A stretch of DNA of 32,000 nucleotides from Candidatus Zhuqueibacterota bacterium (lineage in GTDB: Bacteria; Zhuqueibacterota; Zhuqueibacteria; Zhuqueibacterales; Geothermadaptataceae). Under the pieces are notes generated by a model. The model had not been told where the DNA came from and did not search any database. It was given only the letters and a program-made list of their open reading frames with translations. The translations under genes and the position numbers were made by a program. Shown piece after piece: positions 2,874 through 30,223 of the stretch (positions within the stretch are counted from its first letter, which is position 1; each line of letters opens with the position of its first letter). The DNA lies in contig JAUZRQ010000027.1 of NCBI GenBank assembly GCA_030950365.1, positions 85,293 to 117,292 on the forward strand, read 5' to 3'.

Positions 2874-5428
2874 GGCGGCTGCCGCAGATCGATGCGCTCG
2901 CCGTCGCTGAATTCGACCTGCGGGCCTGCCAGGCGGCGAATGGATTTACCCAGCAGACAGGACAGGGTCTCGGCCAGGTCGATGTCCGGGTACAGACGGT
3001 CGAAATGGGGCCGTACGGTATCGGTTTCGGGATCGAGCTCCACGGCATACAACAGTTTCGGGTCGGCAGTGAACAGCGAGGCTTCACCATCGAGGGCCGT
3101 GATAGCATTGGGCGCCTGTTCGCGGTAGCGTACGCGCCGCAGGATGTCCTCGTACTGCTCGAGCTCGAAATATTTGAAAAAGCCACCGCCGCGCCAGCCG
3201 ACCTGTTTGGAAATGCCGGAACGCTCGCCGGCGAGCACCTTTTTCATGCGCGGCAGCACCACACTGTCGAAATGCGCGCCCATTTCAATGCCGATCCATT
3301 TACGGCCCAGTTTGTGCGCCGCGGCGGTGGTGGTGCCGGAGCCGAGAAAGAAATCCAGCACGAGCTGCCCCGGCTCACTGGTGGCTTCGATCACCCGCGC
3401 CAGCAAAATTTCCGAATTTTGGGTGCGAAATCCCGCAGTGCTTTCGTAGGAAGGGATGTCCTTCCAGTTGTCGGTGATTTTCATGCGCTCGGCCGGCAGG
3501 TACTCCACCTTCCATTCGTCCGCGCCACAGTTCCGGCAGGTGTCGATGCGCGTCACGCCGAATACGGTTTTCTCCGGCGTGATGTCCAGAAATTTGAACC
3601 GGTCTCGGCGCTGCTGCTGAATGGTTGCGATGAACTCCGGACCGCGTTCGGCATCGTCCCAGTAGTAAAGGGCGCCGCAGGCGCGGCATTTCAGGCGCAG
3701 AAAATGCTCGCGCAACAGTTGGTCCACTTTTTTCTGCTGCAGCGAAAAGTGCTGGCCCGGCGGCGGATATAGGGTTTTACCAAAGAATACCCGCTCAGGC
3801 GGATTGCGCTCTTCCTGTTTCAAAAAGCCGGTCCAGCGGAAATCGCCGAGACTGCGCGGACGGTCGAGGGTTTTGTAATACGGCCGGTCGGCGGCGGCGT
3901 ACCAGAAAAGAAACTCGCTCTCCACTTCGAATTTGGTCGGCGTGCCGATGCTCTGCCGCTTGCGGTTGATGAGGATTTCGTTACAGTAGCGGTCTTCGCC
4001 GAAAAGCTGGTTCAGCAGCAAGCGCACGTACATGTTGCCGTTGTAATCGCAGCGCACAAACAGGCTGCCGGCCTCGTGCAGCAGCTCGCGCGCCAGGCTG
4101 AGCCGGTTTTCCAATAGGGTCAGCCAGGTGGCGTCTTTGTATTTGACTGAGTACAGAAAATCGGCATTGGAGCCCAGGTTGAATGGCGGGTCGATGTAAA
4201 TGGTCTGCACGCGGCGGCGGAATTTGGGCAGCATCGTGTTGAGCGCCTGATAATTTTCGCTTTTGATGAGCCAGCCATCGAGGACGCTATCGAGGTCGTC
4301 GAACAGTGCCACCAGCTCAGGCTCGAGGTCGGGAAAATGACGCGTGTCCAGCGGCAGGTGCCGATATCGTGCAGACAGCGCCTCCGCTGAGGACAGGGGC
4401 ACGGCGAGCTGATTTTTGTTAATCCGCGCTTGATGGGCGATAATTTGAAATTGCGCTGAAACCAGTCCGAGCTCTCTCCATTCCGCCAGTTGCGCTTGCA
4501 TGCCGGGATGCGTGAGCATGCGGTTGAGCAAATCCACGCTGCGTTCGGCGAGGCGGTCGAGGGTGATGACGTAGTGGCTGTTACGTACGAAACGCGGTTT
4601 GTTCCAGATGTTCACCAGCTCGTCCTCGAATGGCGCAATTCCGTCGATGATGCGGTTTGCGATGGATTTCAGCGCCTGCAGTTGCTGGACGCGGCGGGCG
4701 TCCCAGGTGGCCTCGTGGGTGAACATGTACTGGTACAGCCACAGATCGAGCTGCTCGCGTAGAAACGCGCGCGCATTTTTGTTGATGAAGAAATCCACTT
4801 CGGATTGGCGTTCGAAAAGCCGGAAGGCGCGCTCGAGGGTGCTCTCCTGCACGGGAATGTCCGACTCGTGCAGGGTTTTCAGGATGTCGCGCAGTGCCGG
4901 TTTGCGCCCGCGCTCGGCATACCGGACTTCGAAAATTAAGGCGCCGTCGTCGCGGCGTTCGTGAAAGCGATAAATCAGCGCGCGTTTTTCATTGGCTTTT
5001 TTGTACTGCAATTGCGAGGCGTCGAAATAGAACGTGTGGTCATCCACCGTGACCGACATGCTTTGAAAAAGCTGGTCGGTTTTGATGTAGTACAGCATGT
5101 GGGTTTTCCAGAACAGCAGCACGTCGCGCTGGTCTGTGTACACGCGCTCGTACACCTGCTGATGCAGGGGCGTGCGGTGGAAATAGATGGAGCCGCTCTC
5201 GCTGAAATAGCGCTGGAAGAACGCATGCAATTTATCGAACAGCTCTTCCCGGAATTCCGGGAAGAGCTGTAGCACGGCATCGATGGCCTGCTGCAATTGC
5301 GGCTGCATGCGCTCGCGGAAATACTGCGATTTGATGCGCATGAGATTGATGTAGCCGGACTGGCCGTCCACCGGCGCACCGACAAACAAGTTTTGCAGGG
5401 CTTCCCAGAATTGCTGCTCTTTGGGCAC
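2837..5428 (-). CDS. Large beta-class (N6-adenine/N4-cytosine) DNA methyltransferase, Type III Mod-like, with long N-terminal extension and a zinc ribbon in the target-recognition region
   Basis: 863-aa ORF with GTG start preceded by GAGGAG. Motif IV 'IYIDPPFN' (aa 411-418) lies upstream of motif I 'LDFFLGSGTT' (aa 691-700), which is the beta-class order. Two CxxC pairs (C581/C584, C631/C634) sit between them. About 400 aa N-terminal are of unknown function. Confidence 0.85.
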   Translation of the reverse strand: MPKEQQFWEALQNLFVGAPVDGQSGYINLMRIKSQYFRERMQPQLQQAIDAVLQLFPEFREELFDKLHAFFQRYFSESGSIYFHRTPLHQQVYERVYTDQRDVLLFWKTHMLYYIKTDQLFQSMSVTVDDHTFYFDASQLQYKKANEKRALIYRFHERRDDGALIFEVRYAERGRKPALRDILKTLHESDIPVQESTLERAFRLFERQSEVDFFINKNARAFLREQLDLWLYQYMFTHEATWDARRVQQLQALKSIANRIIDGIAPFEDELVNIWNKPRFVRNSHYVITLDRLAERSVDLLNRMLTHPGMQAQLAEWRELGLVSAQFQIIAHQARINKNQLAVPLSSAEALSARYRHLPLDTRHFPDLEPELVALFDDLDSVLDGWLIKSENYQALNTMLPKFRRRVQTIYIDPPFNLGSNADFLYSVKYKDATWLTLLENRLSLARELLHEAGSLFVRCDYNGNMYVRLLLNQLFGEDRYCNEILINRKRQSIGTPTKFEVESEFLFWYAAADRPYYKTLDRPRSLGDFRWTGFLKQEERNPPERVFFGKTLYPPPGQHFSLQQKKVDQLLREHFLRLKCRACGALYYWDDAERGPEFIATIQQQRRDRFKFLDITPEKTVFGVTRIDTCRNCGADEWKVEYLPAERMKITDNWKDIPSYESTAGFRTQNSEILLARVIEATSEPGQLVLDFFLGSGTTTAAAHKLGRKWIGIEMGAHFDSVVLPRMKKVLAGERSGISKQVGWRGGGFFKYFELEQYEDILRRVRYREQAPNAITALDGEASLFTADPKLLYAVELDPETDTVRPHFDRLYPDIDLAETLSCLLGKSIRRLAGPQVEFSDGERIDLRQPPWPHIQPLIWWR

Positions 5429-5526: not shown

Positions 5527-5602
5527 TGTAGCACACGCTTCCAGCTTGTGTCGGCAGTGATGCGGCCTGCGGCCGCAACGCAAGCAAGGATGCTTGCGCC
5601 AC
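5527..5602. repeat. Modular GC-rich hairpin repeat, copy 1 (module A 5527-5550, module B 5561-5602)
   Basis: Module B is 41/42 identical and module A 22/24 identical to the reverse complement of 20451-20492 and 20427-20450. Each module folds into short perfect or near-perfect hairpins. Confidence 0.85.
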
Positions 5603-5716: not shown

Positions 5717-7618
5717 ATGGCGTCGAAAATCGGGGAATTTCTCAAAAAACATCGCGAATCAATACAGTCCTTATGGATCAATAAGGTAAAGGATGAAGCC
5801 ACCATTACGACCGTTTTCCCCGGACCAGTGTTGAAAGCATTGATCGGCGAGTTGTTACAGCGGATCATTACCCACTTTGAGTTCCCAGATAGGCAGCAAA
5901 ACTGGATTCAGTTATTCACCGACCGCATGACTGTCGTTTCGGCTGCTTCCATTTACGTCTCTGATCGGGTTGCCAAGGTCGGTAAAAATGTTATTTTGCA
6001 CATGCTGATACAGGAAAGCAATCCCATTGAAGATCAACTGAACGCATTTCTGGAATTGGACCGGGTTTTTGATGAAATCGATTTAGCGCAACTGGCACAG
6101 TTCTTGAACCTACCGCCACGATTTCCTCAATCGCCTGAAGCCGAACAGGCAAAAATCAGCGAGCAATTGCGCTCGCGTCTGAATCTGTTTTACAATGCCT
6201 TCCAGCACAGCACCGATGGCATCATCATTACCGATCTTGGCGGTCGCATCCTTGAAGCCAACGAAGCGTTTTTGAAAATTTTTGGCTATGAATATAATGA
6301 AGTCATCGGCCAACACACTGGGTTTTTGCGCGCGCCCCAAACATCGGATGAATTTTACCGTAAGATGTGGGAATCCATCAATACCAAAGGCGAGTGGAAA
6401 GGCGAAATCATCAACAAATGCAAAGACGGCAGCTTGATTCCGGTGTGGCTTTCTATTACGCCGATTTACGAAGACGGCCAGCGGATTGGGTACATGGGCG
6501 TTGAAATCGATATATCTGAAAAAAAACGTATTGAGAATGCGCTGATCAAAGAAAAACGGTTCACCGAATCGTTGATAGAAACGGCCAACAGTTTGATCGT
6601 AGGGCTCAACCTCAAAGGTGAAATCACCCTGTTCAACAAAAAGCTGGAAGCCACCACGGGCTATAAAAAAGAAGAAGTGTTGGGGAAAAAATGGTTCGAA
6701 ATTTTCCTGCCCGAGCGCATCCGGCCCTCGGTGGAAGAGGTGTTCGACGGTATCGTCAACAACAAAATCCCCTCATACTACGAAAACCCAATTTTAACGC
6801 GGAGCGGAGAAGAGCGCTATATTGCCTGGAGCAATACGGCCATCCGCAACGAGAACAACGAAATCATCGGTGCGTTGGGCATCGGTCAGGACATCACCGA
6901 GCAGAAGCGACTGGAACAACAAATTTTGCATTCCGAACGGCTGGCTACCATCGGCCAGATGGCGGCCAAAGTGGCGCACGAGATCCGCAATCCGCTGTCC
7001 TCCATTATGCTCAACGCCGAACTCTTAGGCGATGAAATCCGTATGGCCGGCGATGCCATTTCCGAGGATGCCGAAGTACTGCTGAAGTCCATTATTTCCG
7101 AAGTGGATCGGGTTGCCAAACTAACCGAAGATTATTTGCAGTTTTCCCGCCTGCCGGATGCCGACCCGCAGCCAGGCGATCTAATCAATCTGATCCAGGA
7201 AGTTGTGGAGTTCATCGAACCGGAGGCCAGCTCCAGAGGCATCCAGATTGTGAGCGAATATGAGACGAACGCGCTGGAACTGGTATTTGATGCGCAGCAG
7301 ATGCGACAGGTGCTGATGAATATTTTGAAAAATGCCCTGGAGGCCATGCGCCGCGGCGGCATTTTGACCGTGCGCGTGCAGGACTCGCGCAAAAAAGTGC
7401 TCATCGCCATATCCGACACCGGCGATGGTATTCCAGAAAAGCTGCAGGACAAAATCTTTCAGCCCTTTTACACGACCAAGGATATGGGCACAGGACTTGG
7501 CCTGGCGATTTCACAGCAGGTGATCCAGGAACACGGCGGCAATATTGAGTTCGAGAGTGAGCCGGGCAAGGGCACCACATTTTACCTGCATTTGCCCAAA
7601 AAACGGTTCAAGAAATAA
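5717..7618 (+). CDS. Sensor histidine kinase with tandem PAS domains
   Basis: 633 aa. PAS-like segments ('FYNAFQHSTDGIIITD', 'ETANSLIVGLNLKGEITLFN'), H-box 'VAHEIRNPL', ATP-binding G-boxes 'DTGDGIP' and 'GTGLGLAISQ'. Confidence 0.9.
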   Translation: MASKIGEFLKKHRESIQSLWINKVKDEATITTVFPGPVLKALIGELLQRIITHFEFPDRQQNWIQLFTDRMTVVSAASIYVSDRVAKVGKNVILHMLIQESNPIEDQLNAFLELDRVFDEIDLAQLAQFLNLPPRFPQSPEAEQAKISEQLRSRLNLFYNAFQHSTDGIIITDLGGRILEANEAFLKIFGYEYNEVIGQHTGFLRAPQTSDEFYRKMWESINTKGEWKGEIINKCKDGSLIPVWLSITPIYEDGQRIGYMGVEIDISEKKRIENALIKEKRFTESLIETANSLIVGLNLKGEITLFNKKLEATTGYKKEEVLGKKWFEIFLPERIRPSVEEVFDGIVNNKIPSYYENPILTRSGEERYIAWSNTAIRNENNEIIGALGIGQDITEQKRLEQQILHSERLATIGQMAAKVAHEIRNPLSSIMLNAELLGDEIRMAGDAISEDAEVLLKSIISEVDRVAKLTEDYLQFSRLPDADPQPGDLINLIQEVVEFIEPEASSRGIQIVSEYETNALELVFDAQQMRQVLMNILKNALEAMRRGGILTVRVQDSRKKVLIAISDTGDGIPEKLQDKIFQPFYTTKDMGTGLGLAISQQVIQEHGGNIEFESEPGKGTTFYLHLPKKRFKK

Positions 7619-7650
7619 CTGGTGGACAGTCAAACGTACGGAGTTTAAAC

Positions 7651-9045
7651 GTGAACGCAAACAATCAACCGAGAGTTCCGCTGCTGGTGGTTGACGACGA
7701 GCAGAGCGTCCGGGATTCGCTGGAGCGCGTGCTGGAAAAGGAGGGCTTCCAGGTGCATACTGCAGACAGCGGTCGGCGCGCGAAAGAGATCCTGCAGAGA
7801 GAACCCATTGCGTTGGTGCTAACCGATCTGCGCATGCCAGAAGTCAGCGGCCTGGATTTACTCCGGCAGGTCAAAAAACAGTATCCCGACACGGAAGTGA
7901 TTTTGATCACCGGGCACGGCACCATCGAAAAGGCGGTAGAGGCGATGAAAGAGGGCGCTTATGATTTTATTACGAAACCCTTCAAGCGCGCGGAGATTCT
8001 GCGGGCGGTGAACAAAGCGCTGGAAAAACAATCCCTGGCGCGCGAAAACCGCATTTTGAAAGAGCAATTGAAGAGCAGTTTTGAAAATAAAATTCAGTTT
8101 ATTGGCAAAAGCAAGCAGGCGCACGACATCATGCAGCTTGTGGACCGCGTGGCACCACTGCCTTCCACCGTGCTCATCACTGGTGAAAGCGGTACCGGCA
8201 AGGAGATCATCGCCCGCTTGATTCACATGAAAAGCCCACGCGCCAACAAACGCTTCGTGGCCGTCAATTGTGGCGCCATCTCCGAGAATTTGATTGAAAG
8301 CGAGCTGTTCGGTCATGTAAAAGGCGCGTTTACCGGCGCCATTCGCGATAAAGAAGGGTTGTTCAAGATTGCTTCGGGCGGCACCCTATTCTTGGATGAA
8401 ATTAGCACAATTCCCATCAACCTGCAGGTGAAATTGCTGCGGGCGTTGGAAGAACATGAAATCATGCCCGTGGGGTCCACCAAAACCATCCCGGTGGATG
8501 TGCGCATCATTGCCGCCAGCAATCGGGACCTCATGAAAGAAGTGGAGGAAGGTCGGTTCCGCGAAGACCTGTTTTACCGTTTGAACGTGATTGGCATCAA
8601 TATTCCGCCGCTGCGCGAACGTCGGGAGGATATTCCATTGCTGGTGGATTTCTTTATTAAAAAATTCAATCGCGAGCTAAACAAAAACGTGAGCGGTGTC
8701 AGTCATCAGGTCATGCAAATGTTTTTGACCTATCAGTGGAAAGGCAACGTGCGCGAGCTCGAAAACGCCATCGAGCGGGCAATGATTCTGTGTGACGGCG
8801 ATCAGATCATGCCGGAGCACATGCCGCAGAACTTCTCCACAACAGAGGTTCAGCCCGTGGTGAAGAGCGGCCTGAAAGAGGCCGTTATGGCCTTTGAAAA
8901 ATCTCAAATTCTGAAAACCCTCGAAATTGTCAATGGCGATAAGAAAGCGGCGGCCAAACTGCTGGGATTGAGCATATCTTCGCTATATCGGAAGATGAGC
9001 GAACTCGGCCTGGACGTGAAAGAGACGATCGGAAAGAATTCTTAA
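7651..9045 (+). CDS. Sigma54-dependent response regulator (NtrC family: REC + AAA+ + Fis-type HTH)
   Basis: 464 aa. Receiver 'LVLTDLRMP', Walker A 'GESGTGKE', 'GAFTGA' sigma54-contact motif, C-terminal HTH 'AAAKLLGLSISSLYRKM'. Sits immediately downstream of the kinase. Confidence 0.92.
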   Translation: MNANNQPRVPLLVVDDEQSVRDSLERVLEKEGFQVHTADSGRRAKEILQREPIALVLTDLRMPEVSGLDLLRQVKKQYPDTEVILITGHGTIEKAVEAMKEGAYDFITKPFKRAEILRAVNKALEKQSLARENRILKEQLKSSFENKIQFIGKSKQAHDIMQLVDRVAPLPSTVLITGESGTGKEIIARLIHMKSPRANKRFVAVNCGAISENLIESELFGHVKGAFTGAIRDKEGLFKIASGGTLFLDEISTIPINLQVKLLRALEEHEIMPVGSTKTIPVDVRIIAASNRDLMKEVEEGRFREDLFYRLNVIGINIPPLRERREDIPLLVDFFIKKFNRELNKNVSGVSHQVMQMFLTYQWKGNVRELENAIERAMILCDGDQIMPEHMPQNFSTTEVQPVVKSGLKEAVMAFEKSQILKTLEIVNGDKKAAAKLLGLSISSLYRKMSELGLDVKETIGKNS

Positions 9046-9144
9046 TTTTGAGAAAAAGGCGATTAGATTTACTAATGCTGGGAAAAGCTGCAAAACTGTT
9101 TTAAGGATATTTAAGTGTAAGGGTATTGTAACTTTTTTGAAATC

Positions 9145-9178
9145 AGCCACTTGTCCGTATGGTAAGTGGCTTTTTTTA
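9145..9178 (+). terminator. Rho-independent terminator after the NtrC-like gene
   Basis: Stem agccactt (9145-9152) pairs with aagtggct (9164-9171), followed by a T7 run. Confidence 0.7.
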
Positions 9179-9200
9179 TTTATAAAAATATGCACAAATT

Positions 9201-9215
9201 TGGCACTATACTTGT
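9201..9215 (+). promoter_or_regulatory. Sigma54 (-24/-12) promoter candidate
   Basis: TGGCAC-tatac-TTGT matches TGGCAC-N5-TTGC at 14 of 15 defined positions with correct GG/G spacing. It lies about 30-45 nt upstream of the ORF at 9245/9260. Confidence 0.55.
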
Positions 9216-9244
9216 AAAAAGTTTATTCACTTTTTATGTGAAAA

Positions 9245-9697
9245 ATGCAAGGGCAAAACATGCGCCTGGCTGTGCAACAACGTGGATTGGCTACAAACAA
9301 GGTGGAGGGAGACCATTTGCCAAATTTAGAGGTCTTTCGCATCCTCATTATCGAGAATGATTCCGTTTTTCGTCGTTCGTTGTTCAAAGCCCTCACTGGA
9401 GAAGGATACACGGTATTCGCTGCCGCCGATTTGGTTGAGGCAACTGAATTTATTTCACAGGTGACGTTTTCTCTAATTTTATACGGTCTGCGTCGGCCCT
9501 ACCAGGGGGGACTCGATCAATTAAAGCACCTGCTGCAAATCGCCAAGAATACGCAGATCATCGTGGTGACGACGTTTAACGAGCCGGAACTGAAACGCCA
9601 GGTGCTGGATATGGGGGCCAGGGATCTCATTGTCAAGCCCGTGCGCAAAGCTGCACTGCTGAATTCCGTTGCCAATGTGCTGCAGGTGCATTCCTAA
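9245..9697 (+). CDS. Single-domain receiver-like protein lacking the phospho-acceptor Asp (pseudo-receiver)
   Basis: 150 aa with CheY-like layout. The conserved T ('VVTTF') and K ('LIVKPV') are present. The 'DLxMP' position reads 'YGLRRP', with Gly81 where the Asp should be. The start could also be 9260. Confidence 0.7.
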   Translation: MQGQNMRLAVQQRGLATNKVEGDHLPNLEVFRILIIENDSVFRRSLFKALTGEGYTVFAAADLVEATEFISQVTFSLILYGLRRPYQGGLDQLKHLLQIAKNTQIIVVTTFNEPELKRQVLDMGARDLIVKPVRKAALLNSVANVLQVHS

Positions 9698-20332: not shown

Positions 20333-20426
20333 GGGATTTCCTGTGCAGATTTTGTTGGCAAAATATAGCCAATCTACCTGCATGGGGCAAGGGGTAAGTT
20401 ACCTATTTGCAATTCGCCGCGATTCC

Positions 20427-20492
20427 CACAAGCTTGAAGCTTGTGCTACAGTGGCGCAAGCATCCATGCTTGCGTTGCGGCCGCAGGCCGCA
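20427..20492. repeat. Modular GC-rich hairpin repeat, copy 2 (module A 20427-20450, module B 20451-20492)
   Basis: Matches the reverse complement of copy 1 modules (22/24 and 41/42). Hairpins: cacaagc/gcttgtg, cgcaagcat/atgcttgcg, tgcggcc/ggccgca. Confidence 0.85.
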
Positions 20493-20766
20493 ATCGACAG
20501 GCGGCACATCGACGTCAAAGCCCCAGTTCAGGGGGGATGAACAGTGCATGGACAGTAGCAGAAGCCATGTTAGATCTTGACTCCCACAATCTGGAATCTT
20601 ATGTGAGCTTTATAAATTCGCTATCAAGAAAACTCACAAATTAGCCGATCAGTTTGTTGTGATATCCACTATGAGCATGAAAAAACCTTGAGCAAACCAT
20701 ACTGGCTCAGAATGATGAGTCTGGCTGAAAACGCAAACCACAACTCACCGGAAGCAAGGGAATAGT

Positions 20767-22590
20767 ATGCAATTTGGGTTCAGGACGACGGCACGACACC
20801 TCTTCATCCCCGTATTGACTTTCGCGCTCAGCTTGCCATTTGCCGGGCTCAGCCAGGAAATGGCTCAGCTTAGCCGTATCGAAGAGCTGGAAAAGTCCAT
20901 GGAGGCGAACCTCACCTGGAATTTGGAAAACGCTCTCCTGATGTATTACCCCGAAAACAAATTCGTCGTCAAAGCCAATGTGGAGCTCGTGCCCGTCAAA
21001 GTACAAAACGAGCTGCCGAAGCTGCCGGAAGCGCTGTTGAATCGCGAAGTCAACCATTTGCCGGGGCTCCCGTTTCTTCCGGACGCCAATACGCCGCAGA
21101 GCGCCAACCCCGAGGTGCAGTCCTCGCTGGCGCGCCAGGTAAAAGAACAGCGGTTGGCCCTGAAGCGAGCCTGGGTGAACGTGCTGCTGGATGAAAATTT
21201 CACCGACAGCGATGTGCGCTTCATCCGCCGGCTGGTAGCGCTGACTGCAGATCTCGATCCGCGGCGCGGCGATCAGGTCAAAGTGGAACGGATGGCCTTT
21301 CCGCTGCAGGAAGTACCTGTGGAAGAGCGGACTCTGGCGGAGGAGCCTTCCGTGAAACCCGAAACCACACCGACCAATGCTAAAGCTTCATCCTCGTGGC
21401 TGCCCTGGGCGATTTTGGCCGGCGCATTGCTCCTGTTTTTGCTCCTGTTTGTGTGGAGCATGCGCAAGCTCGTCAGAGCACTGAGCGATGGCTTGAGACC
21501 GCTGCAGCATTTGCATATGCCGCATCCCGCGGTGAAGCCGACTTCAGCAGCAGCCGCCGAAGTCGTGCAGCAGTTCAAAGAAGAGAAGCAGGATGAACAG
21601 GTGCAAAAACTCAAGTCCGAGGTTATCGATGCCATAGTCGGCACACCGGCCATGGCCGCCCGGCTGTTTCAAACCTGGATTCAACACCACGGGGATCGCG
21701 GCTATGAAGAGGTGGCACTCCTCATGCTGGCCACCTCGCGATCGCTGATCGACCTGCTGGCGCCGTATCTAGGACCGGAGGCCGCCGGCAACGTACAGTT
21801 GAAAATGGATCAGCTGACGCAGGAGCAGCTCGAACAGCAGCAGGAGGCCGTGCTGGAGCGCTTTGATCGCGAGCTGCGCCATTACGCCCTGCGCGTGCGC
21901 GCCAGGCAGGAGGAGGAAGACGCGCTGGCCTTCCTCTACAAAATGTCCGACGATCAGTTGTTGCACCTGATCAAGCCGCTGAAAAAAGGCATCAAAGCGA
22001 TTGTGCTGGCACAGTTGCGGCCCGAGAAGGCAGCCAAAATACTGCGCACCTTCGATGCGGAGACCCGCCGCGGCGTTCTGGCCGCGATGGGCAATATTCA
22101 AAACATCCCGGCGGATGTGTACCAGCACATCGCGCGGCAACTGGCCGGCCGGGCGCAGAAACTGGAGCACATGCGCTTCGTGAAGGCCGATGGCGTCGAA
22201 GCCCTCGTCGAGGTGCTGGATCAGCTCGATGAACAGACGCAAATCGATACGCTGCAGCATCTGCAAACGCAGGATGTGGAGTTGGCCAAACGCGTGCGTT
22301 CGCGCTTTCTCACCTTTGACGATCTGCTGGATATGCCGGAAGACAAACTGCGCGATCTGGCCATTCAGGTGGACCGCGAACTTCTGGCCAAGTCCCTGAC
22401 TACTGTGGACGAGGCCGCGGCCGAAAAGATCATTCGGGCGCTGCCCGAGAAACTGGCCGAAATGGTGCGCGCCAGCCTCGAAACCCTGCATGATGTACCC
22501 GAGGCTGAGGTTGTGCAGGCACGCCGCGAATTGCTGCGCACCGCACGCGATCTGTTTCAAAAAAGCGAAACCAATCTGAAAGATGAGTAG
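20767..22590 (+). CDS. FliF-like ring-building periplasmic domain + TM + full-length FliG-like cytoplasmic domain (fusion-type rotor protein)
   Basis: 607 aa. N-terminal signal/TM segment. aa 35-180 show an alpha-beta-beta-alpha-beta ring-building-motif pattern as in FliF/SctJ. TM at aa 211-230. aa 310-600 align by eye to FliG N, M and C domains ('RPEKAAKILRTFDAETRRGVLAAM', 'FLTFDDLLDMPEDKLRDL', 'EKLAEMVRASLE...VPEAEVVQARRELL'). Confidence 0.7.
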   Translation: MQFGFRTTARHLFIPVLTFALSLPFAGLSQEMAQLSRIEELEKSMEANLTWNLENALLMYYPENKFVVKANVELVPVKVQNELPKLPEALLNREVNHLPGLPFLPDANTPQSANPEVQSSLARQVKEQRLALKRAWVNVLLDENFTDSDVRFIRRLVALTADLDPRRGDQVKVERMAFPLQEVPVEERTLAEEPSVKPETTPTNAKASSSWLPWAILAGALLLFLLLFVWSMRKLVRALSDGLRPLQHLHMPHPAVKPTSAAAAEVVQQFKEEKQDEQVQKLKSEVIDAIVGTPAMAARLFQTWIQHHGDRGYEEVALLMLATSRSLIDLLAPYLGPEAAGNVQLKMDQLTQEQLEQQQEAVLERFDRELRHYALRVRARQEEEDALAFLYKMSDDQLLHLIKPLKKGIKAIVLAQLRPEKAAKILRTFDAETRRGVLAAMGNIQNIPADVYQHIARQLAGRAQKLEHMRFVKADGVEALVEVLDQLDEQTQIDTLQHLQTQDVELAKRVRSRFLTFDDLLDMPEDKLRDLAIQVDRELLAKSLTTVDEAAAEKIIRALPEKLAEMVRASLETLHDVPEAEVVQARRELLRTARDLFQKSETNLKDE

Positions 22591-22593
22591 GCG

Positions 22594-23733
22594 ATGGCGA
22601 AAATGAAAGCAAAATGGACGTGGCCGTTCATCGGCCTCTGGCTGGTATTTGGGACGTTTGCCGTGCGGGGGCAAACGCCCGAGCAATTGGACCGAAATGC
22701 CGTGATACTCGGGCTGATGGAAGACCTGCTGGAAAAAGTGCAACCCGCCATTCAGGCAATCGATCCGGAACTAAAGCGCATTGCGCTGTACCGGCTCACG
22801 GTGCAGGGCAGGGGTTTGACACCACCGCTGCGGGATCACTTCGAAAACCGGCTGATTGAAACCCTGCAAACCCTGGATCATCCCCGTGTGGTGTCGCTGC
22901 CCAAATTCAACAACCTGCGTATCACCTCGACCGACAGCTCGTTCATGATCATCAACGCGCTACCGACCCCGGATGAGCTCTGGCGGGTGGGCCGGCGGTT
23001 GCGCGTGGATGCCTTTTTGGAAGGCAAACTGTCCTATCTGCCCGGCAACGGCCTGATTCTCGACTTGCGCCTCAACCGTACCGGGACGAATGAAGTGCTA
23101 TGGGCGGAATCGTTCGAGGCCTATGAGAAGCCGCTCGAGCCGCTACCCAAAAATCCGTTCCAGGTCAGCTTCAACATGGGCGTGGAAACCTTCCCGGTGG
23201 ATATCGACAAGGCCTCGCGTTCATTGCTGCGGCAGGATTTTCAGGATCAAATTTATCATTACAGCTTTTACCTTGGTTTTCGCCAGAACCTGTGGGAAGC
23301 CTCGAAATTCCGGTATGAATTTCAGGTCGGGGCCTCGTTGCTTTCCGAGGGCATTAAACTGGATAGCACCTACTTTGAAGAGGATGCGTTCTACGGTCAA
23401 AAAAGCGACAAAGCTTCCTCATTGCCCATCGCTTATTTCATCCGGTCGCTGTTAGCGATCAAACTGATTGAAAATGAGGGCAATGTTGGCGGCGATTGGC
23501 TGTCGCTGACCCTCGGTTTCGCACGCTATTTCGCCAAAAACATGCCCGATTTCAACACGATTTCTATCGGGTTACGGTCGGATATCAGTCCGCATTTTTC
23601 GCTGTCCTCGGGGTTCTCGCTGGCGTTCGGCCAGGAGTTCGAATCGGTGCCGGTTTCATCGACCGGCCAGCCTATTCGGATCAAAATTTCCGGCATTTCC
23701 ATGAACATCTTTTTCTTGCAATACACGTTCTAA
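22594..23733 (+). CDS. Secreted protein: periplasmic alpha/beta domain (CsgG/LpoB/FlgO-like pattern) plus putative C-terminal outer-membrane beta-barrel
   Basis: 379 aa. Signal peptide 'WPFIGLWLVFGTFAVRGQ'. Pattern 'RIALYRL...VGRRLRVDAFLEGKLSYL...LILDLRLNRTGTNEVLWAESF'. The C-terminal half has alternating hydrophobic strands and ends '...FFLQYTF' (terminal Phe, OMP signature). Confidence 0.6.
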   Translation: MAKMKAKWTWPFIGLWLVFGTFAVRGQTPEQLDRNAVILGLMEDLLEKVQPAIQAIDPELKRIALYRLTVQGRGLTPPLRDHFENRLIETLQTLDHPRVVSLPKFNNLRITSTDSSFMIINALPTPDELWRVGRRLRVDAFLEGKLSYLPGNGLILDLRLNRTGTNEVLWAESFEAYEKPLEPLPKNPFQVSFNMGVETFPVDIDKASRSLLRQDFQDQIYHYSFYLGFRQNLWEASKFRYEFQVGASLLSEGIKLDSTYFEEDAFYGQKSDKASSLPIAYFIRSLLAIKLIENEGNVGGDWLSLTLGFARYFAKNMPDFNTISIGLRSDISPHFSLSSGFSLAFGQEFESVPVSSTGQPIRIKISGISMNIFFLQYTF

Positions 23734-24467
23734 TGCCTAATGCAATGACCATGACTCAACTCAGTGAAAGAGCGATGATGAGACGATCCATTTCCAAAAG
23801 CCGTTTTCTCGCAGGCATTGTAGCTGGCGCTGTGCTGGCCGGCATGGGCTGCAGCAGCAGCGCTAGAAAGGAGATTCGCAAGGAGCCGGGCACGCTGCTA
23901 CCGGCGTTGACGATAACCGACTCCCTGAAAGCCAAAGGCGGCGAGGTGGTAACTCAGCTCAAGGGCAAAGATGAATCGTTCAAAAAGGTCATCACCTATC
24001 CGTATCTGACGATCCGCTTTAAGCAGGAAGATACCGAGGTAGAGATGGTCCTCGACCCTATGAGCACGAACCTGGTGCTGGATTTGAAACGGTCCTCCAG
24101 ATGGGAATGGGAAGTGCTCGAGGGCGATTCGGCGCTGACGCGCAACCGCATGCCGACACCGCCCGACAGCCTGAACGATAAAATTTACCCCCTCAAAGAC
24201 GAATCCCTACAGGACCTGACCGATGAGATCGTACGCGATATCAACCTGGCGCAGCAACTGTTTTATCAGCGGCGCTACGAGGAAGCGTTGCGCATCTTGA
24301 ACCAATCGCTGCAAAAAAAGCCCACGGCAGCGGCTTATGCGCTGGGCGGTTCGATTTATTTTGTCAATGGCGATATTGACCAGGCGGTTCGTGCCTGGGA
24401 AAACGCGTTGAAAATCGATCCCGGTCTGGATGATGTGAAACGACTGGTGGCCCGTTACAAAAAATAG
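23733..24467 (+). CDS. TPR-repeat lipoprotein
   Basis: The TAATG start overlaps the previous stop; alternative starts at 23775/23778 give the signal 'MMRRSISKSRFLAGIVAGAVLAGMGC' with a lipobox Cys. C-terminal TPR region 'YQRRYEEALRILNQSLQKKPTAAAYALGGSIYFVNGDIDQAVRAWENALKIDP'. The tracked ORF start at 23496 overlaps the upstream gene and is rejected. Confidence 0.7.
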   Translation: MPNAMTMTQLSERAMMRRSISKSRFLAGIVAGAVLAGMGCSSSARKEIRKEPGTLLPALTITDSLKAKGGEVVTQLKGKDESFKKVITYPYLTIRFKQEDTEVEMVLDPMSTNLVLDLKRSSRWEWEVLEGDSALTRNRMPTPPDSLNDKIYPLKDESLQDLTDEIVRDINLAQQLFYQRRYEEALRILNQSLQKKPTAAAYALGGSIYFVNGDIDQAVRAWENALKIDPGLDDVKRLVARYKK

Positions 24468-24482
24468 CAGTGAGGTGAATCG

Positions 24483-25301
24483 GTGGGTACGTTTATCGGC
24501 ATATTACTGGGTGCGGCGTTGATTGCCATTGGCATTGCCTCGGGACAGGCGCCGGCGAATGTTTTCTGGAATTGGCAGGGCATGGCCATTGTATTGGGGG
24601 GCACCATCGCCTCCACGCTCATTTCCTATCCGTTGCCCGAAGTGTTTCGCGGATTTCGTTCCTTCTTCGTGATTTTCCGTTCCGGTGCGCACAATCTCGT
24701 GGATGCGGTGAATCGGCTGGTCTCGGCGACTCGTATTTTTCACCGCGAAGGCGTCGCCGCGACGGCACAGCATGCCGCTGGCTGGAAAGATTTGTGGATA
24801 TTCAAAGACGGTTTGCAACTTATGATCAATGGCTATACGCGCGAAGAAACGAAAGAAATTTTAGAAGACCAGGTGCGCTGGCAGCTCAGCCGCGAGCACA
24901 AGCAGGAAGGCCTGTTCAACCGCATGGCGAAAATTGCGCCGGCGTTTGGTATGGTGGGCACCCTCATCGGGCTCATCAATATGCTGATCACGCTTCAGGC
25001 GCATCCGCAGCAGGTGGGAGAGGGGCTGGCCATTGCGCTTACCACCACATTCTACGGCCTGATTCTCGCCAATCTGCTGTTTTCGCCGATCGCAGCGAAA
25101 ATCCGCGAGCGGGCGGAAAACAATGTGTTGCTGCAGACCATGCAGATTGAAACGATTTTGATGATGTACGAAAAGCGCAATTATGTGTTTGTGCGTGAAA
25201 AGCTGGCGGCGTATTTAAATGCCGGACTGAGAAAGAAAGTTCAGCAAACGGCTGGTGTTCAGGCCGTATCCGCACCCCCTAATGTTAAAAAGGCAGCGTG
25301 A
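24483..25301 (+). CDS. motA: MotA/PomA-type stator channel protein (MotA/TolQ/ExbB family)
   Basis: 272 aa, four TM segments with a long TM2-TM3 cytoplasmic loop. 'IAPAFGMVGTLIGLI' and 'ALTTTFYGLILANLLFSPIA' match the MotA TM3/TM4 signatures. Confidence 0.85.
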   Translation: MGTFIGILLGAALIAIGIASGQAPANVFWNWQGMAIVLGGTIASTLISYPLPEVFRGFRSFFVIFRSGAHNLVDAVNRLVSATRIFHREGVAATAQHAAGWKDLWIFKDGLQLMINGYTREETKEILEDQVRWQLSREHKQEGLFNRMAKIAPAFGMVGTLIGLINMLITLQAHPQQVGEGLAIALTTTFYGLILANLLFSPIAAKIRERAENNVLLQTMQIETILMMYEKRNYVFVREKLAAYLNAGLRKKVQQTAGVQAVSAPPNVKKAA

Positions 25302-25304
25302 TAA

Positions 25305-25946
25305 ATGGAAATCGGATTACCCAAATATCTTCGGCGGACCGAGCGCGAGGTGGAAAGCGAGCCCTGGTTGATGTCGTATTCCGACATGACCACCCTGCTG
25401 CTGGCGTTTTTCGTACTGTTTTTTGCCATCTCGCAGCTCGATCAGACCAAGTTCGAAATGATCATGGAGTATTTCAGCAAGACAGAAACCATGCCCCTGC
25501 ATCAGCTTGAGAAAAAATTCAAGCAGTTCATTGAAGAACATCGATTACAGGATAGTATGGAGGCGGAGCTAACACCGAAAGGTCTGTTGGTGCATTTTCA
25601 GGATAAAATTCTGTTCGATTCGGGCAAGGCCGAACTCAAGCCCGAAGCCTATCCAGTGCTCGATGCCCTGGCGCAACTGCTGCGTCAGCCCGAAGTGCAG
25701 CAACGCAAAATCGAGGTGGAAGGCCACACCGATACCGTGCCCATCAGCAAAAACGCCGATTATCCGTCGAACTGGGAACTGTCGGCGGCTCGCGCTACGC
25801 GCGTGATTCGCTACCTCATCGAGCAAAACATCGCTCCGAACCGGTTTGTGGCCGTGGGCTATGCGGATACGCGGCTGCGCGTTCCAGAGAGCGACGGCCA
25901 CCGCGGACTGCCGGTGAATCGCCGCGTGAGCTTGTTGATCAAGTAG
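25305..25946 (+). CDS. motB: MotB-type stator protein with OmpA-like peptidoglycan-binding domain
   Basis: 213 aa. 'WLMSYSDMTTLLLAFFVLFF' carries the conserved channel Asp. OmpA-like region 'FDSGKAEL...VEGHTDTVPI...NWELSAARATRV...NRRVSLLI'. Confidence 0.88.
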   Translation: MEIGLPKYLRRTEREVESEPWLMSYSDMTTLLLAFFVLFFAISQLDQTKFEMIMEYFSKTETMPLHQLEKKFKQFIEEHRLQDSMEAELTPKGLLVHFQDKILFDSGKAELKPEAYPVLDALAQLLRQPEVQQRKIEVEGHTDTVPISKNADYPSNWELSAARATRVIRYLIEQNIAPNRFVAVGYADTRLRVPESDGHRGLPVNRRVSLLIK

Positions 25947-27977: not shown

Positions 27978-30125
27978 CTATTTCAGCAGCAACAATTTAC
28001 GCGTTTGCCGATACGGTGCGGCCGTCAGGCGATACAAATAAAGGCCGCTCGCAAGATTGCCGGCCTCCAGCTTAATGCGGTAGTGACCTACTGGCTGCCA
28101 CCGATGCAGAAGGCGCCGAATCCGTCTACCGGTCACATCCAGAAGATCGAGGGTGACTTCGGTATTCCGTGGCAGGCTGTATTCGATCCAGGTGTTGCGG
28201 TTGAACGGATTTGGGTAATTCGGGTAAAGGTAAAAAACATTCGGCTGGTCTGGCGAGGCCTCGGCCACAGCCACAGGGGTGTCATTGATAAATAAATACT
28301 GATAAGGGCCTGCAGGATATAGCGAAACCAGAAGATCGGCATCGCCATCGCTATCGATATCCACCAGAAAGGGCTGTGGGCGGTTTTCGTCCGGCCGGAG
28401 ATCGGGGTGCGTCACATGCTCCGGAACCTGATTGGGAATCGACTGCCATGAAGGCGATCCGGACGTGCCAACATTCTGATAATAGCGAAGCTCGCCACCC
28501 ACGAATCCCACCAGCATATCCGGCAGGCCATCGCGGCTGAGATCACCGAAACCGATGCCGGAGACGCGCCCGGAAAAGTCCGGTAGCAGCCAGTCGGGGC
28601 GCTCGACCCAAGCGATGCGATCGCCCTGCTGGCGCTGTTCAAAGAACACGAATCCGGTGCGCACGCTGTCCGGTGAAACGGTGACGGACCGCTCCAGCAG
28701 CAGATCCAGATCGCCGTCACCGTCCATATCTACCGGTTCCGGATGGCGGTAGGTGGTATCCGTTCCGGCGTTGATGCGGTTAAAGCGCGCAAAAAAGTGT
28801 TCACTGCGATCGATCCATGCGCTGGTATCCGCCATCTGATCTGGAAATTCCAGAACGAAAAACCGGACAAACGGTTGATTCAAAAGCACCATCAGGAAAG
28901 AGCCGATGAGCTCCTGACGGCCATCGCTGTCCATATCAGCCACCCGGGCATGGAGCTGATCCGGCAGGCCCGACGACAGTGGCATGAAAAAGCTGTTCCG
29001 GAGTTGCCAGAATGGGAGATCGAGCCATTCGGTTTGCCGATATAGGTTCAATTCAAGAAAACCGCGATCTGAACGAATTCCCTGCCGGATCAGGAGCATT
29101 TCCGCACGGCCATCGCCTTCTAAATCGAACGGCAGCCATGCTTGCGCAATCCTGGATTGCAAATTCACGGAGTAGTAATGCGGATCAAACCAGAGGGAGT
29201 CGGCGCGCGCACGGAATAGGCGCAATCCGTTCAGATCGGTAAGATCGGTGCGGCCATCACCATCGATGTCAAACGCGCCCAGCAGGTGATAGCGGTACCA
29301 GCCAGGAAAATCAATGAGACCGGGCGTTTCCTGCCAGCGGATGCCGCTGCTATCGCGCATGGCAAAGAAAACGATCAGACGATTTTGTACATCGTCCAAT
29401 TCCACAACCGCGATGTCTTTTAAGCCGTCGTAATTGACATCGATGAAAATAGGGGAATGGACGGCGCGTCCGCTGATGGCCCTTAGCACCGGCTGGATAA
29501 ACGAATTGTTCTTTTGCCATACCGGATGTCTCGCCGTACCTGTATTCTCGAAATAAGCGAATGATATTCCAGAGAAACCGAACCGCGGTCCCATCAGGGC
29601 ATCGAGATCGCCGTCGCGATCCGCATCGGCAAAGGACAGCACCGTGTTCTCGATGGCGTCCGGCACATCCAGACCGGCAACCAGCGCGGTATCGGCATAC
29701 CATTGGCCATTATGATCCCGCGTGACCGCGATCAGCCGCGGTGGTGTATGTGCCTTGCGCTCATAGGTGATCCAATCAAGCCAGGTATCGCCGTTTAAAT
29801 CGGCCAGCGAGACCCAACTCGTGTACAGAAAGGGCAGAAGCGCTTCTGCCAGCGAGTCACTGGAGGTCCATCCAGTAGCGGTTTTAACAAAGATATGCAG
29901 CCGGCAGCAGATGTCATAATCGAAGTTGAGGCTGATCATATCGGTTTTGCCGTTATGATCGATGTCGCCCCAGGTCCAGTACATATACGGAGCCAACGGC
30001 AATTCGAATGGATTGAAAAATGCGGGATCGAATTGCCATTTGAGATTCTGGCAGTACACCCGGGTATGATTCATGGCGGCGCATGCAAGAAAAGCCCAAA
30101 GAATGACCCAAAAGCCTTTTCGCAT
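27978..30125 (-). CDS. FG-GAP/VCBS-repeat protein with T9SS (Por) C-terminal sorting domain
   Basis: Multiple DxDxDG calcium-binding loops ('DADRDGDLD', 'DIDGDGRTD', 'DMDGDGDLD', 'DIDSDGDAD'). C-terminus 'YPNYPNPFNRNTWIEYSL...VTLDLLDVTGRRI...ASGLYLYRL...RKLLLLK'. The likely start is 'MRKGFWVILW' at 30125. Confidence 0.85.
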   Translation of the reverse strand: MRKGFWVILWAFLACAAMNHTRVYCQNLKWQFDPAFFNPFELPLAPYMYWTWGDIDHNGKTDMISLNFDYDICCRLHIFVKTATGWTSSDSLAEALLPFLYTSWVSLADLNGDTWLDWITYERKAHTPPRLIAVTRDHNGQWYADTALVAGLDVPDAIENTVLSFADADRDGDLDALMGPRFGFSGISFAYFENTGTARHPVWQKNNSFIQPVLRAISGRAVHSPIFIDVNYDGLKDIAVVELDDVQNRLIVFFAMRDSSGIRWQETPGLIDFPGWYRYHLLGAFDIDGDGRTDLTDLNGLRLFRARADSLWFDPHYYSVNLQSRIAQAWLPFDLEGDGRAEMLLIRQGIRSDRGFLELNLYRQTEWLDLPFWQLRNSFFMPLSSGLPDQLHARVADMDSDGRQELIGSFLMVLLNQPFVRFFVLEFPDQMADTSAWIDRSEHFFARFNRINAGTDTTYRHPEPVDMDGDGDLDLLLERSVTVSPDSVRTGFVFFEQRQQGDRIAWVERPDWLLPDFSGRVSGIGFGDLSRDGLPDMLVGFVGGELRYYQNVGTSGSPSWQSIPNQVPEHVTHPDLRPDENRPQPFLVDIDSDGDADLLVSLYPAGPYQYLFINDTPVAVAEASPDQPNVFYLYPNYPNPFNRNTWIEYSLPRNTEVTLDLLDVTGRRIRRLLHRWQPVGHYRIKLEAGNLASGLYLYRLTAAPYRQTRKLLLLK

Positions 30126-30223
30126 GGCCCATTCTCCCAAATGATTTCAACAAGGCGGCCTTGACGCGGGGAAGCTGGTTGATTGCAGTGGCTGGCAAAT
30201 GAGACGCGGACGGGCTTGAGCGA

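Follow-up and report, generated by a model that had tools for sequence, protein, structure and literature searches.

A five-gene cassette with FliF/FliG-like and MotA/MotB-like products as a candidate non-flagellar envelope motor

FliG and MotAB-type stators are known to cooperate in the flagellum only. In Tol/Ton transducers coupling proceeds via a transmembrane helix and not via a cytoplasmic domain, the tol-pal operon contains the TPR protein CpoB/YbgF, and TPR/Sel1 proteins such as MotX of Vibrio aid stators in some flagella. Here, we describe a cassette of five genes (g1 to g5) in a 32,000-nucleotide (nt) stretch of DNA from a Candidatus Zhuqueibacterota bacterium (GenBank assembly GCA_030950365.1, contig JAUZRQ010000027.1, positions 85,293 to 117,292 of the forward strand), the whole of which was analysed and is referred to as the window, with positions counted from its first letter. 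The products are a predicted FliF/FliG-like fusion protein, a secreted outer-membrane (OM) protein, a TPR lipoprotein and the two subunits of a MotA/MotB-type stator. Because a wall-anchored stator, a FliG-like/RBM3-like membrane protein (RBM, ring-building motif) and two OM partners are co-inherited, we lean, if only narrowly, towards the view that the cassette genes specify a rotor-stator machine that is self-contained and non-flagellar, spans the envelope and delivers torque or force to the OM. An earlier note on this DNA had proposed an ion-driven envelope machine distinct from the flagellum, from Tol/Ton and from Zorya, a proposal that is supported by the identities of the parts, their conservation and the model scores. 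The features to which the text refers are as follows, all on the + strand.

20767-22590, +: g1, rotor-like fusion protein of 607 amino acids (aa), from the list of open reading frames (ORFs)
20767-20856, +: signal peptide or anchor of g1 (aa 1-30), a hydrophobic N-terminal helix in the AlphaFold2 (AF2) model
20857-21300, +: predicted periplasmic domain of g1 (about aa 31-178), from AF2 secondary structure, the YscJ_FliF_C match and FliF S-ring/RBM3 fold matches
21058-21072, +: L-P-G-L-P motif of g1 (aa 98-102), part of its periplasmic loop
21397-21471, +: predicted transmembrane helix of g1 (about aa 211-235), helix 212-241 in the model, with W211, P213 and G231 conserved
21547-22563, +: FliG-like region of g1, from Pfam, the alignment to T. 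maritima FliG (1lkv) and Foldseek
22594-23733, +: g2, secreted OM protein of 379 aa, from the ORF list
23775-24467, +: g3, TPR lipoprotein (likely start 23775/23778), from the TPR match and the leader plus Cys
24483-25301, +: g4, MotA-type stator A subunit of 272 aa, with a GTG start
25305-25946, +: g5, MotB-type stator B subunit of 213 aa, from the ORF list
25383-25385, +: channel Asp of g5 (D27), in a Y-S/G-D motif within the transmembrane helix and invariant in 19 orthologues

The earlier note had described five same-strand ORFs separated by junctions of 3, 15 and 3 nt and, between g2 and g3, a TAATG overlap. The gaps of g1/g2 (3 nt), g3/g4 (15 nt) and g4/g5 (3 nt) stand as described; the overlap requires the first in-frame ATG of g3 (23733) and is probably not the true start, since the annotated length of the orthologue in the near-identical locus L004 (229 aa) and the position of the signal peptide both point to a start at 23775/23778, which results in a g2/g3 gap of ~40 nt. 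The five product identities given in that note (FliF/FliG fusion, barrel, TPR lipoprotein, MotA and MotB) agree with the Pfam, NCBIfam and fold matches presented below.

When compared with the flagellar motor core, the cassette shares a FliG-like N/M/C region with an FxTF motif and torque helix, an RBM3-like periplasmic domain adjoining a transmembrane helix in the manner of FliF's C-terminal half, and a stator with plug, channel Asp and OmpA-like anchor. A structure of an engineered FliF-FliG fusion exists (8z4d), whereas the fusion in g1 would be a natural one. Conversely, the cassette and its surroundings lack FlhA/FlhB/FliPQR, rod, hook, filament, FliM/FliN and L/P rings, several motifs and contact residues of the flagellar rotor and stator are replaced (detailed below), and the obligatory OM barrel and TPR lipoprotein of the cassette have no place in flagella. 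The SprB-driving GldLM/PorLM motor is likewise envelope-spanning and ion-driven; one branch of the cassette precedes a giant SprB/CHU_C-type adhesin gene, the cassette family belongs largely to the Fibrobacteres-Chlorobi-Bacteroidetes (FCB) group, and the window encodes a protein sorted by a type IX secretion system (T9SS). The cassette stator is of the MotAB type, however, and coupling would use a cytoplasmic FliG-like domain rather than the periplasmic GldM shaft; none of the five products matched the GldL/PorL or GldM/PorM families in Pfam or NCBIfam.

The Tol-Pal system (TolQRA, TolB, Pal and CpoB) resembles the cassette in combining a 5:2-type stator, a TolB-N-like domain, an OmpA-like domain and a TPR protein in one operon, but the cassette has neither a TolA-like protein nor a beta-propeller, its TolB-N-like domain is fused to a barrel and it possesses a FliG-like domain. 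Membership of Tol-Pal was rejected, as TolQ is matched at 1e-3 only and ExbD/TolR at 0.94, TolA is missing and only the fold of the TolB N-domain is shared (by g2). With the T-ring/H-ring proteins of Vibrio (MotX, MotY and FlgT) the cassette has in common a repeat-containing partner encoded together with a PomAB/MotPS-like stator, and in the gammaproteobacterial locus L026 a Sel1/SPOR protein gene lies just 5' of motA; in contrast, the repeats of g3 are TPR and not Sel1, MotX-type scaffolds sit on flagellar P/L rings, and no homology of g3 to MotX was found in Pfam or NCBIfam. Zorya was also dismissed: g4 has no ZorA match in PADLOC and lacks a long cytoplasmic tail, the ZorB match of g5 (1.5e-22) represents generic MotB similarity, and ZorC/ZorD-type genes are absent from the cassette. 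Similarly, the cellulose-adhesion proteome of Fibrobacter succinogenes (MotA/TolQ/ExbB, TPR) was judged unrelated, being of the ExbB/ExbD/TonB type with FliG unmentioned. No prior description of the module was found by full-text literature searches or in papers on stator evolution and on loss of flagellar motility, and NCBI names g1 'FliG C-terminal domain-containing protein' or 'hypothetical protein', the name elsewhere being 'flagellar motor switch protein FliG'. The cassette would thus constitute a new kind of system made from known modules, pending experimental confirmation.

The predicted rotor, stator and outer-membrane partners

The relation of g1 to both FliG and FliF, on which the earlier note had staked its reading, is apparent in Pfam, NCBIfam, PDB profile and Foldseek searches alike. 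Pfam identified FliG_C (7.9e-18), FliG_M (6e-10), FliG_N (3e-7) and YscJ_FliF_C (4.9e-7), the last match spanning profile positions 82-147 (the last 65) and g1 aa 116-178, while TIGR00207 (fliG) of NCBIfam was matched at 1.2e-25 with 90.6 bits (model cut-off 226.7) and the PDB profile search returned FliG at 1.6e-17. An AF2 monomer model, built on an alignment of 38 sequences, presents in order an N-terminal hydrophobic helix, a periplasmic unit, a transmembrane helix and an all-helical cytoplasmic region. Its top Foldseek match in the PDB was full-length FliG (E 1.5e-9, 318 aligned columns, and so all three FliG domains), followed by the FliF S-ring/RBM3 chains 8z5v, 8z4d, 7d84 and 6sd3 with template modelling scores, TM(target), of 0.5-0.62 (0.58-0.62 for the best three, 8z5v, 8z4d and 7d84). 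Because the model matches both full-length FliG and FliF S-ring/RBM3 structures, g1 is predicted to join a FliF RBM3-like unit through one transmembrane helix to a whole FliG in a natural fusion.

The periplasmic part of the model has an RBM-like topology (alpha-beta, the loop of aa 77-118, then alpha-beta-alpha-beta), and the position of the loop corresponds to that of the beta-collar insertion in FliF. The LPGLP motif within this loop, which characterises the family as a whole, is invariant in the 38-sequence subfamily, and in the wider family P99 and G100 are retained in 135 and 136 of 137 sequences, respectively. RBM1 and RBM2 are not present in g1: PF01514 was unmatched, Foldseek matched RBM3/S-ring chains only and the periplasmic part is ~150 aa long. 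The transmembrane helix is followed by a basic cytoplasmic stretch, RKLVRALSDGLR, and then by an N-like helical part (aa 261-382), FliG_M (aa 397-466) and FliG_C (aa 498-599), which contains the FxTF motif and a torque helix with the sequence PEKLAEMVRASLE. The FliM-binding EHPQ motif of FliG_M is replaced by an invariant KPLK in all KSB1/Calditrichota members of the alignment, and of its residues the Glu alone is kept in the wider family (117/137). Canonical FliG is a soluble protein of ~330 aa that docks on the C-terminal tail of FliF, whereas the FliG part of g1 is embedded in a membrane protein of 607 aa.

The g4 product matched Pfam MotA_ExbB at 1.8e-25, and in NCBIfam it scored as MotP (9e-46), PomA (2e-37) and MotA (2e-36) as against TolQ at 1e-3, all of these being below the equivalog cut-offs. 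The best PDB match was MotA of C. sporogenes (6ysf/8ucs, 2e-34), and g4 was aligned over its full length to the stator structures of C. sporogenes, Paenibacillus, Aquifex and Vibrio PomA. All orthologues keep the APAFG and FxP motifs, which are read as the two conserved channel prolines, and the equivalents of T158, T185 and T186 of PomA are all Thr, a pattern which we take to be that of Na+-type stators and which offers a hint for g4. On these similarities g4 is a flagellar-type (MotP/PomA-like) stator A subunit. Additionally, g5 matched MotB_plug (2.4e-17) and OmpA (1.7e-20) in Pfam, MotS (6e-49) in NCBIfam and 6ysf_A (4.5e-32) in the PDB, and its OmpA-like peptidoglycan-binding domain extends over aa 103-195. 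The MotA_ExbB, MotB_plug and OmpA matches together with the invariant D27 bear out the channel Asp and OmpA-like domain reported in the earlier note, and the homologies show g4 and g5 to be a flagellar-type MotA/MotB stator in which ion pathway, plug and peptidoglycan anchor are predicted to be intact. In a comparison bearing on whether the cassette stators form a clade of their own, pairwise scores between phyla (~75-180 bits) were no higher than those to a flagellar MotA of Clostridium (~90-130 bits, from few references).

No Pfam or NCBIfam family was matched by g2. The AF2 model of this protein, which has a mean predicted local distance difference test (pLDDT) value of 84, comprises a signal peptide (aa 1-27, 22594-22674) ending in AQ, an alpha/beta domain (aa 62-177) and an eight-stranded barrel (aa 190-378). 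The alpha/beta domain resembles the N-terminal domain of TolB and the C-terminal domain of LpoB (TM(target) 0.60-0.63 for the latter), while the barrel matched OmpA/OmpX/NspA/Ail at a TM(target) of about 0.5, both by Foldseek. The OMP-type C-terminal Phe that had been noted earlier is present, the sequence ending in ...LQYTF, and the model indicates that g2 is a secreted OM barrel protein with a periplasmic TolB-N/LpoB-like domain. Its 39 homologues are all unnamed, and one identical copy occurs in a KSB1 metagenome-assembled genome (MAG; locus tag Q9P14_12955). The g3 product has a TPR match in Pfam, with the TPR region at ~24216-24455 and a lipobox Cys at 23850-23852; since a hydrophobic leader followed by Cys is kept in every orthologue, it is considered a lipoprotein. 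A weak NCBIfam match of g3 was to the Leptospira BatC TPR protein (1e-4). Furthermore, the signal peptides of the g1 and g2 families end in a conserved Ala-Gln directly before the mature part (consensus ...AQ), an end which presumably fits the 'Q-rule' for signal-peptidase I substrates of Bacteroidota, in which the N-terminal Gln is cyclised; if this fit is true, the rule would reach KSB1/Calditrichota.

Distribution of the cassette

Approximately 38 full-length homologues of g1 were identified (559-608 aa), those with names carrying the label KSB1 or Calditrichaeota; the next matches were canonical FliG proteins of 344-352 aa that cover 31% of the query (E 1e-8 to 5e-13). A genome scan recovered 17 loci labelled KSB1, Calditrichaeota/Calditrichaceae or unclassified 'bacterium', and Bacteroidetes in the case of the truncated L019; these labels are those of the depositors and the carriers are all uncultured. 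By tblastn, g1 to g5 are collinear in every KSB1/Calditrichota locus that is sufficiently long, with identities of 40-50% for g1 and g2, 58-67% for g4 and g5, and 40-91% overall. Because the same order recurs in every such locus, the five-gene arrangement is far beyond chance. Conservation of gene order in relatives had been named beforehand as a test of the earlier note's reading, and the order is indeed retained across 40-91% identity and between unrelated flanks, which include genes for cytochrome c, an epimerase, a glycosyltransferase, an aminotransferase, a penicillin amidase and DNA polymerase III. The ORFs are intact, and the ratio of non-synonymous to synonymous substitution rates (dN/dS) against the two closest relatives is 0.035-0.155 across all five genes; the genes are under purifying selection, and the module is therefore a selected unit and not a remnant.

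A profile of the 38 g1 sequences was subsequently used to search 1.84 billion cluster representatives, and 176 proteins (clusters) were found at E<=1e-30. Among the best 150, the majority have lengths of 560-780 aa and are matched over nearly all of the profile, and named members stem from Fibrobacterales, Elusimicrobia, Gammaproteobacteria, Pseudomonadota and further KSB1 MAGs; a protein search with an alignment of 94 sequences returned already known members only. The same five-gene order is present in L025 (a 1.36-Mb metagenomic contig), L028 (an Elusimicrobia MAG), L030 (a Fibrobacterales MAG) and L031-L050. The order is permuted in L026 (a gammaproteobacterial MAG; Sel1/SPOR, MotA, MotB, g2-like, TPR, g1) and in L029 (409-aa protein, TPR, g1, MotA, MotB), and L027 carries a partial set (TPR, g1, MotA, MotB). 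A hidden Markov model (HMM) of the g2 family matched the neighbouring unknown proteins of L025 (2e-40), L028 (8e-30) and L026 (4e-15). The partners named in the earlier note also accompany these far more distant g1 family members in other phyla, and comparison of the loci shows that the five genes travel together across phyla.

The locus L031 is a 363-kb marine contig encoding a SusC-like receptor, DUF4249 and CHU_C/SprB domains, and such domain content suggests that L031-L050 belong to Bacteroidota. In L031 the gene that directly follows the cassette, on the same strand, specifies a protein of 5,839 aa in which Ig_7, SprB and CHU_C (T9SS type B sorting) domains occur. A metagenome scan started from this branch yielded 22 loci, with identical gene order wherever the contig is long enough. 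In four of these (L039, L040, L042 and L048; g1 37-46% identical to the seed) a giant Ig_7 ('CHU_C-associated')/Big_2 ORF lies directly 3' of motB on the same strand and extends past the contig end, and in L032 and L033 (83-99% identity) tblastn matches to the L031 adhesin occur at the same position. The adhesin linkage is thus conserved over considerable divergence.

A proposed mechanism and its rivals

In the proposed mechanism, g1 would oligomerise via its RBM3-like domain to form an inner-membrane ring, which would constitute an MS-ring and upper C-ring in a single polypeptide without a central export gate. Wall-anchored MotA5B2 complexes at the rim of this ring would draw on a flow of H+ or Na+ to push against the FliG_C-like domains, turning or loading the ring, in a machine that operates with no switch of the FliM/FliN kind. 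On its periplasmic side the ring, with the near-invariant LPGLP loop at the collar position, would engage g2 and g3, and torque or force would in this way reach the OM. Most speculatively, the output would be the moving or tensioning of cell-surface proteins in a gliding- or adhesion-type process, and in at least one branch the mechanical energy would be passed to a giant surface adhesin. We consider the case for and against rotation of the modelled g1 ring to be evenly balanced, while movement of surface proteins as the output, proposed because a giant SprB/CHU_C-type adhesin gene is fixed behind motB in the Bacteroidota-like branch, is possible but doubtful. The proposal in its fullest form, i.e. 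an unrecognised class of envelope motor composed of a FliF(RBM3)-FliG ring, MotAB, a barrel and a TPR lipoprotein and moving giant adhesins in at least one branch, is put forward tentatively. That the module is self-contained and non-flagellar (INDEPENDENCE from the flagellum) is, in our estimation, very probable.

A number of observations weigh against such a machine. Ring formation by g1 and its contact with MotA are read from a monomer model and from sequence; the model has a pLDDT of 73 and a low predicted template modelling score (pTM 0.29), and the loop of aa 77-118 is disordered in it. For the rotor-stator interface, g1 was aligned to T. maritima FliG and g4 to C. sporogenes MotA, and residues are given in E. 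coli numbering. The equivalents of D288/D289 of FliG are an invariant Ala-Ser in the window subfamily and variable in the wider family, that of MotA R90 is Gln/His in the window subfamily and Arg in two of six lineages of the wider family, and that of MotA E98 is variable and non-acidic in the window subfamily. The canonical charges are gone on both sides in this subfamily, which calls for an interface other than the textbook one. The R281-equivalent of FliG is K in the window and K/R/Q in its subfamily; in the wider family, 129 of the 137 members have R/K there, and since the E98-equivalent is also acidic in four of six lineages of that family, one of the two classical charge pairs appears to be largely kept there. 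The contact surface would be recognisably flagellar in type but diverged, most of all in the KSB1 branch. Further points on this side are the lack of a consistent functional neighbour in the KSB1/Calditrichota loci, the confinement of the adhesin linkage to one branch, the absence of an adjoining g2 from L027 and the failure of the g2 HMM to detect the 409-aa neighbour in L029. Additionally, some KSB1 lineages and Caldithrix abyssi are flagellated, and cooperation with a flagellum encoded elsewhere in this MAG is possible.

The main rival to a rotor-stator machine, which we hold to be improbable, is a Tol-Pal/TonB-like non-rotary transducer in which MotAB pulls single g1 molecules or small oligomers. 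The periplasmic domain of g1 would contact the TolB-N-like domain of g2 and a CpoB-like g3 with no large spinning ring, and the purpose would be to energise an OM process (envelope integrity, coordination of wall synthesis or surface-polymer export). The resemblance of the g2 N-domain to the TolB N-terminal and LpoB C-terminal domains, the TPR protein in the operon, the Pal-like OmpA domain of g5 and the Wza/Wzc/Wzy export genes directly after the gammaproteobacterial cassette are in keeping with a transducer, and with the canonical charge pairs lost from the window subfamily, another mode of coupling would be possible. However, the stator is flagellar-type as judged by its MotP and TolQ scores, g1 contains a complete FliG N/M/C whose sole known role is that of the rotor surface pushed by MotA, and its periplasmic domain matches a ring-building motif, FliF forming 33/34-mer rings. 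A sensory or regulatory device (an anchored ion channel gated by g1, a mechanosensor that reports on the envelope or surface contact, or a reservoir of stators) seems less probable again: the missing torque charges in the window subfamily and the PAS kinase, sigma-54 activator and ArsR-type regulator in the wider window would suit it, yet Pfam and NCBIfam identified no signalling output domain in the five proteins, the regulators are not conserved neighbours, and five trans-envelope structural proteins conserved across phyla exceed the needs of a sensor. We attach next to no probability to a functionless leftover of a lost flagellum that is now decaying. Lineages without motility are known to retain some flagellar genes as remnants (PMC12199754), but the five ORFs are intact with the low dN/dS values given above, and the fused architecture and two non-flagellar partners are conserved across phyla.

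It also appears very unlikely that the cassette is an accessory or alternative rotor-stator of a flagellum encoded elsewhere, whether as a second motor, an MS-ring/FliG variant or a stator-recruiting scaffold. Some KSB1 clades and Caldithrix abyssi do encode full flagella (the full flagellar cluster of the latter is in a genome not among the 17 loci recovered), and in most of the flagellated MAGs of KSB1 'clade IV' the counts are fliG = 2 and motA = 2 with a single fliM (PMC9012183 Table S7), so that cassette and flagellum can coexist. Conversely, g1 lacks RBM1/RBM2, which house the export gate in FliF, and in the window subfamily also EHPQ, and the cassette lies beside no flagellar gene in the gene tables and flanks of the related loci examined. 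The module is found on Bacteroidota-like contigs, and a survey of flagellar proteins reported Bacteroidota to be without filament, C-ring and MS/L-ring proteins (PMC12199754); it is likewise found in Fibrobacterales and Elusimicrobia MAGs (flagellar status unchecked). Furthermore, the two KSB1 'clade III' MAGs GCA_002085355.1 and GCA_014729735.1 have fliG = motA = motB = 1 and lack fliM, fliN, fliC, fliD, flgK and flgL according to their KEGG orthology (KO) assignments (PMC9012183 Table S7). The annotation of the Joint Genome Institute labels g1 homologues 'FliG' and these counts are those that the cassette would yield, the MAGs not being tied to cassette contigs; the two cassette contigs that were looked up belong to assemblies other than the KSB1 MAGs of Table S7. 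The earlier note had named as refuting a complete flagellar regulon with the cassette genes as its sole fliF/fliG/motAB; indirectly, this is disfavoured by the missing RBM1/RBM2 and EHPQ of g1, by the occurrence in the phyla just named and by both KSB1 patterns of Table S7. The cassette is apparently found in some genomes with a flagellum and in others without one. KO-based 'flagellar' calls in such KSB1 MAGs are probably produced by the cassette, and published motility inferences may need revisiting; as annotation pipelines call g1 FliG, MAGs that carry only the cassette can score as partly flagellated or motile.

If the rotor-stator reading is true, the cassette would be the first natural flagellar rotor-stator pair without type III export, and either a living model of a pre-flagellar state or an exaptation. 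It would be spread over the FCB group, Elusimicrobia and Gammaproteobacteria and in at least one branch represent a new gliding or adhesion machinery, and it may explain surface motility or adhesin dynamics of uncultured FCB lineages. Should the ring rotate, a new output would be added to those of the 5:2 ion-driven motors, beside the flagellum, Ton, Tol, Gld/T9SS, Agl-Glt and Zorya. With respect to flagellar origins, it would imply that selection can preserve an MS-ring-like/FliG/stator unit in the absence of an export apparatus. Rotor proteins without filaments have been raised as an open question (PMC12199754), for which the cassette provides a testable object, comprising the torque-generating half and two OM partners and conserved across phyla.

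Surroundings of the cassette

As the earlier note had stated for the cassette and its flanks, the window holds no other flagellar genes: Pfam analysis of the remaining large ORFs identified none for export gate, rod, hook, filament or FliM/FliN in the 32 kb. These ORFs encode a type III restriction-modification (R-M) pair, a PAS histidine kinase, a sigma-54 activator, a receiver protein, an MrfA-type helicase, an FG-GAP/Por_Secre_tail protein, Band 7 and NfeD. The FG-GAP protein with its Por_Secre_tail is the T9SS-sorted protein of the earlier note, which had also listed a repair helicase and a CDGSH/ArsR pair as neighbours; the MrfA-type helicase is in the window, and CDGSH and an ArsR-type HTH were identified in the near-identical L004, which additionally encodes PFOR, DHODH, TonB_C, Usp and YdjC. 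The R-M-like pair (136-5428, - strand) consists of a ResIII/SWI2-SNF2 helicase-type subunit (729 aa) and an N6_N4 DNA methylase (863 aa), and a 186-aa ORF between the two genes matches no known family. At 5717-9697 (+ strand) lie the genes for a triple-PAS histidine kinase, an NtrC-type sigma-54 activator (receiver, AAA+ and Fis HTH) and a stand-alone receiver protein, a group located ~11 kb 5' of the cassette and not kept beside it in other loci. The G+C content of the window falls to 0.43 at 9-10 kb.

A promoter and terminator scan of the operon gave counts at chance level and was uninformative, and a riboswitch or leader RNA 5' of g1 was rejected, since Rfam at E<=1 returned two chance-level matches only. 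The long spacer 5' of g1 contains a dispersed hairpin repeat: one copy of a hairpin-rich intergenic repeat of ~140 nt is present upstream of g1 at 20415-20560 (+ strand), with three palindromes (ACAAGCTTGAAGCTTGT, GCAAGCATCCATGCTTGC and GCGGCCGCAGGCCGC) and an RNA fold z-score of -2.6. Three tandem copies occupy the matching place in the 91%-identical relative (L004 9260-9760), and a 38-nt core recurs in a second intergenic region of the window (5562-5599, - strand; 0 expected by chance). The repeat looks like a dispersed element of the repetitive extragenic palindrome (REP) or miniature inverted-repeat transposable element (MITE) type with variable copy number.

Proteins with T9SS tails adjoin the cassette only sometimes (L001, L015 and the window/L004), which is weak evidence of an association. 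Proteins that have FG-GAP or LVIVD repeats and end in a T9SS sorting domain of the Por_Secre_tail/FlgD_ig/CHU_C types are located at 27978-30140 (- strand) of the window, L001 15223-17241 and L015 7523-8431, and thus near the cassette in several, not all, KSB1-type loci; the 'FlgD_ig' label on such tails can be mistaken for a flagellar gene. In the Bacteroidota-like branch one or two small ORFs of ~130-160 aa precede g1 (L040 795-1582, L038, L042, L046 and L048). Those of L040 have lipoprotein-type leaders (…AYGC and …FVSC) and no counterpart in the window; identification of the first as a type III secretion needle protein (Pfam 8e-5, below cut-off) was dismissed as spurious, both being lipoprotein-like. 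At L027 12805-16573 no gap separates the cassette from an ensuing MoxR AAA+/DUF58/DUF4381/VWA set that resembles a 'Bat'-type operon, the MoxR gene overlapping the end of motB. At L026 12614-18819 the permuted cassette is followed by genes for a BBP2_2 OM barrel, a Wza-like Poly_export/SLBB protein, a Wzz/GNVR tyrosine-kinase-type protein and a Wzy_C polymerase and preceded by that for the Sel1/SPOR protein, a neighbourhood that may connect it with polysaccharide export or with septal peptidoglycan.

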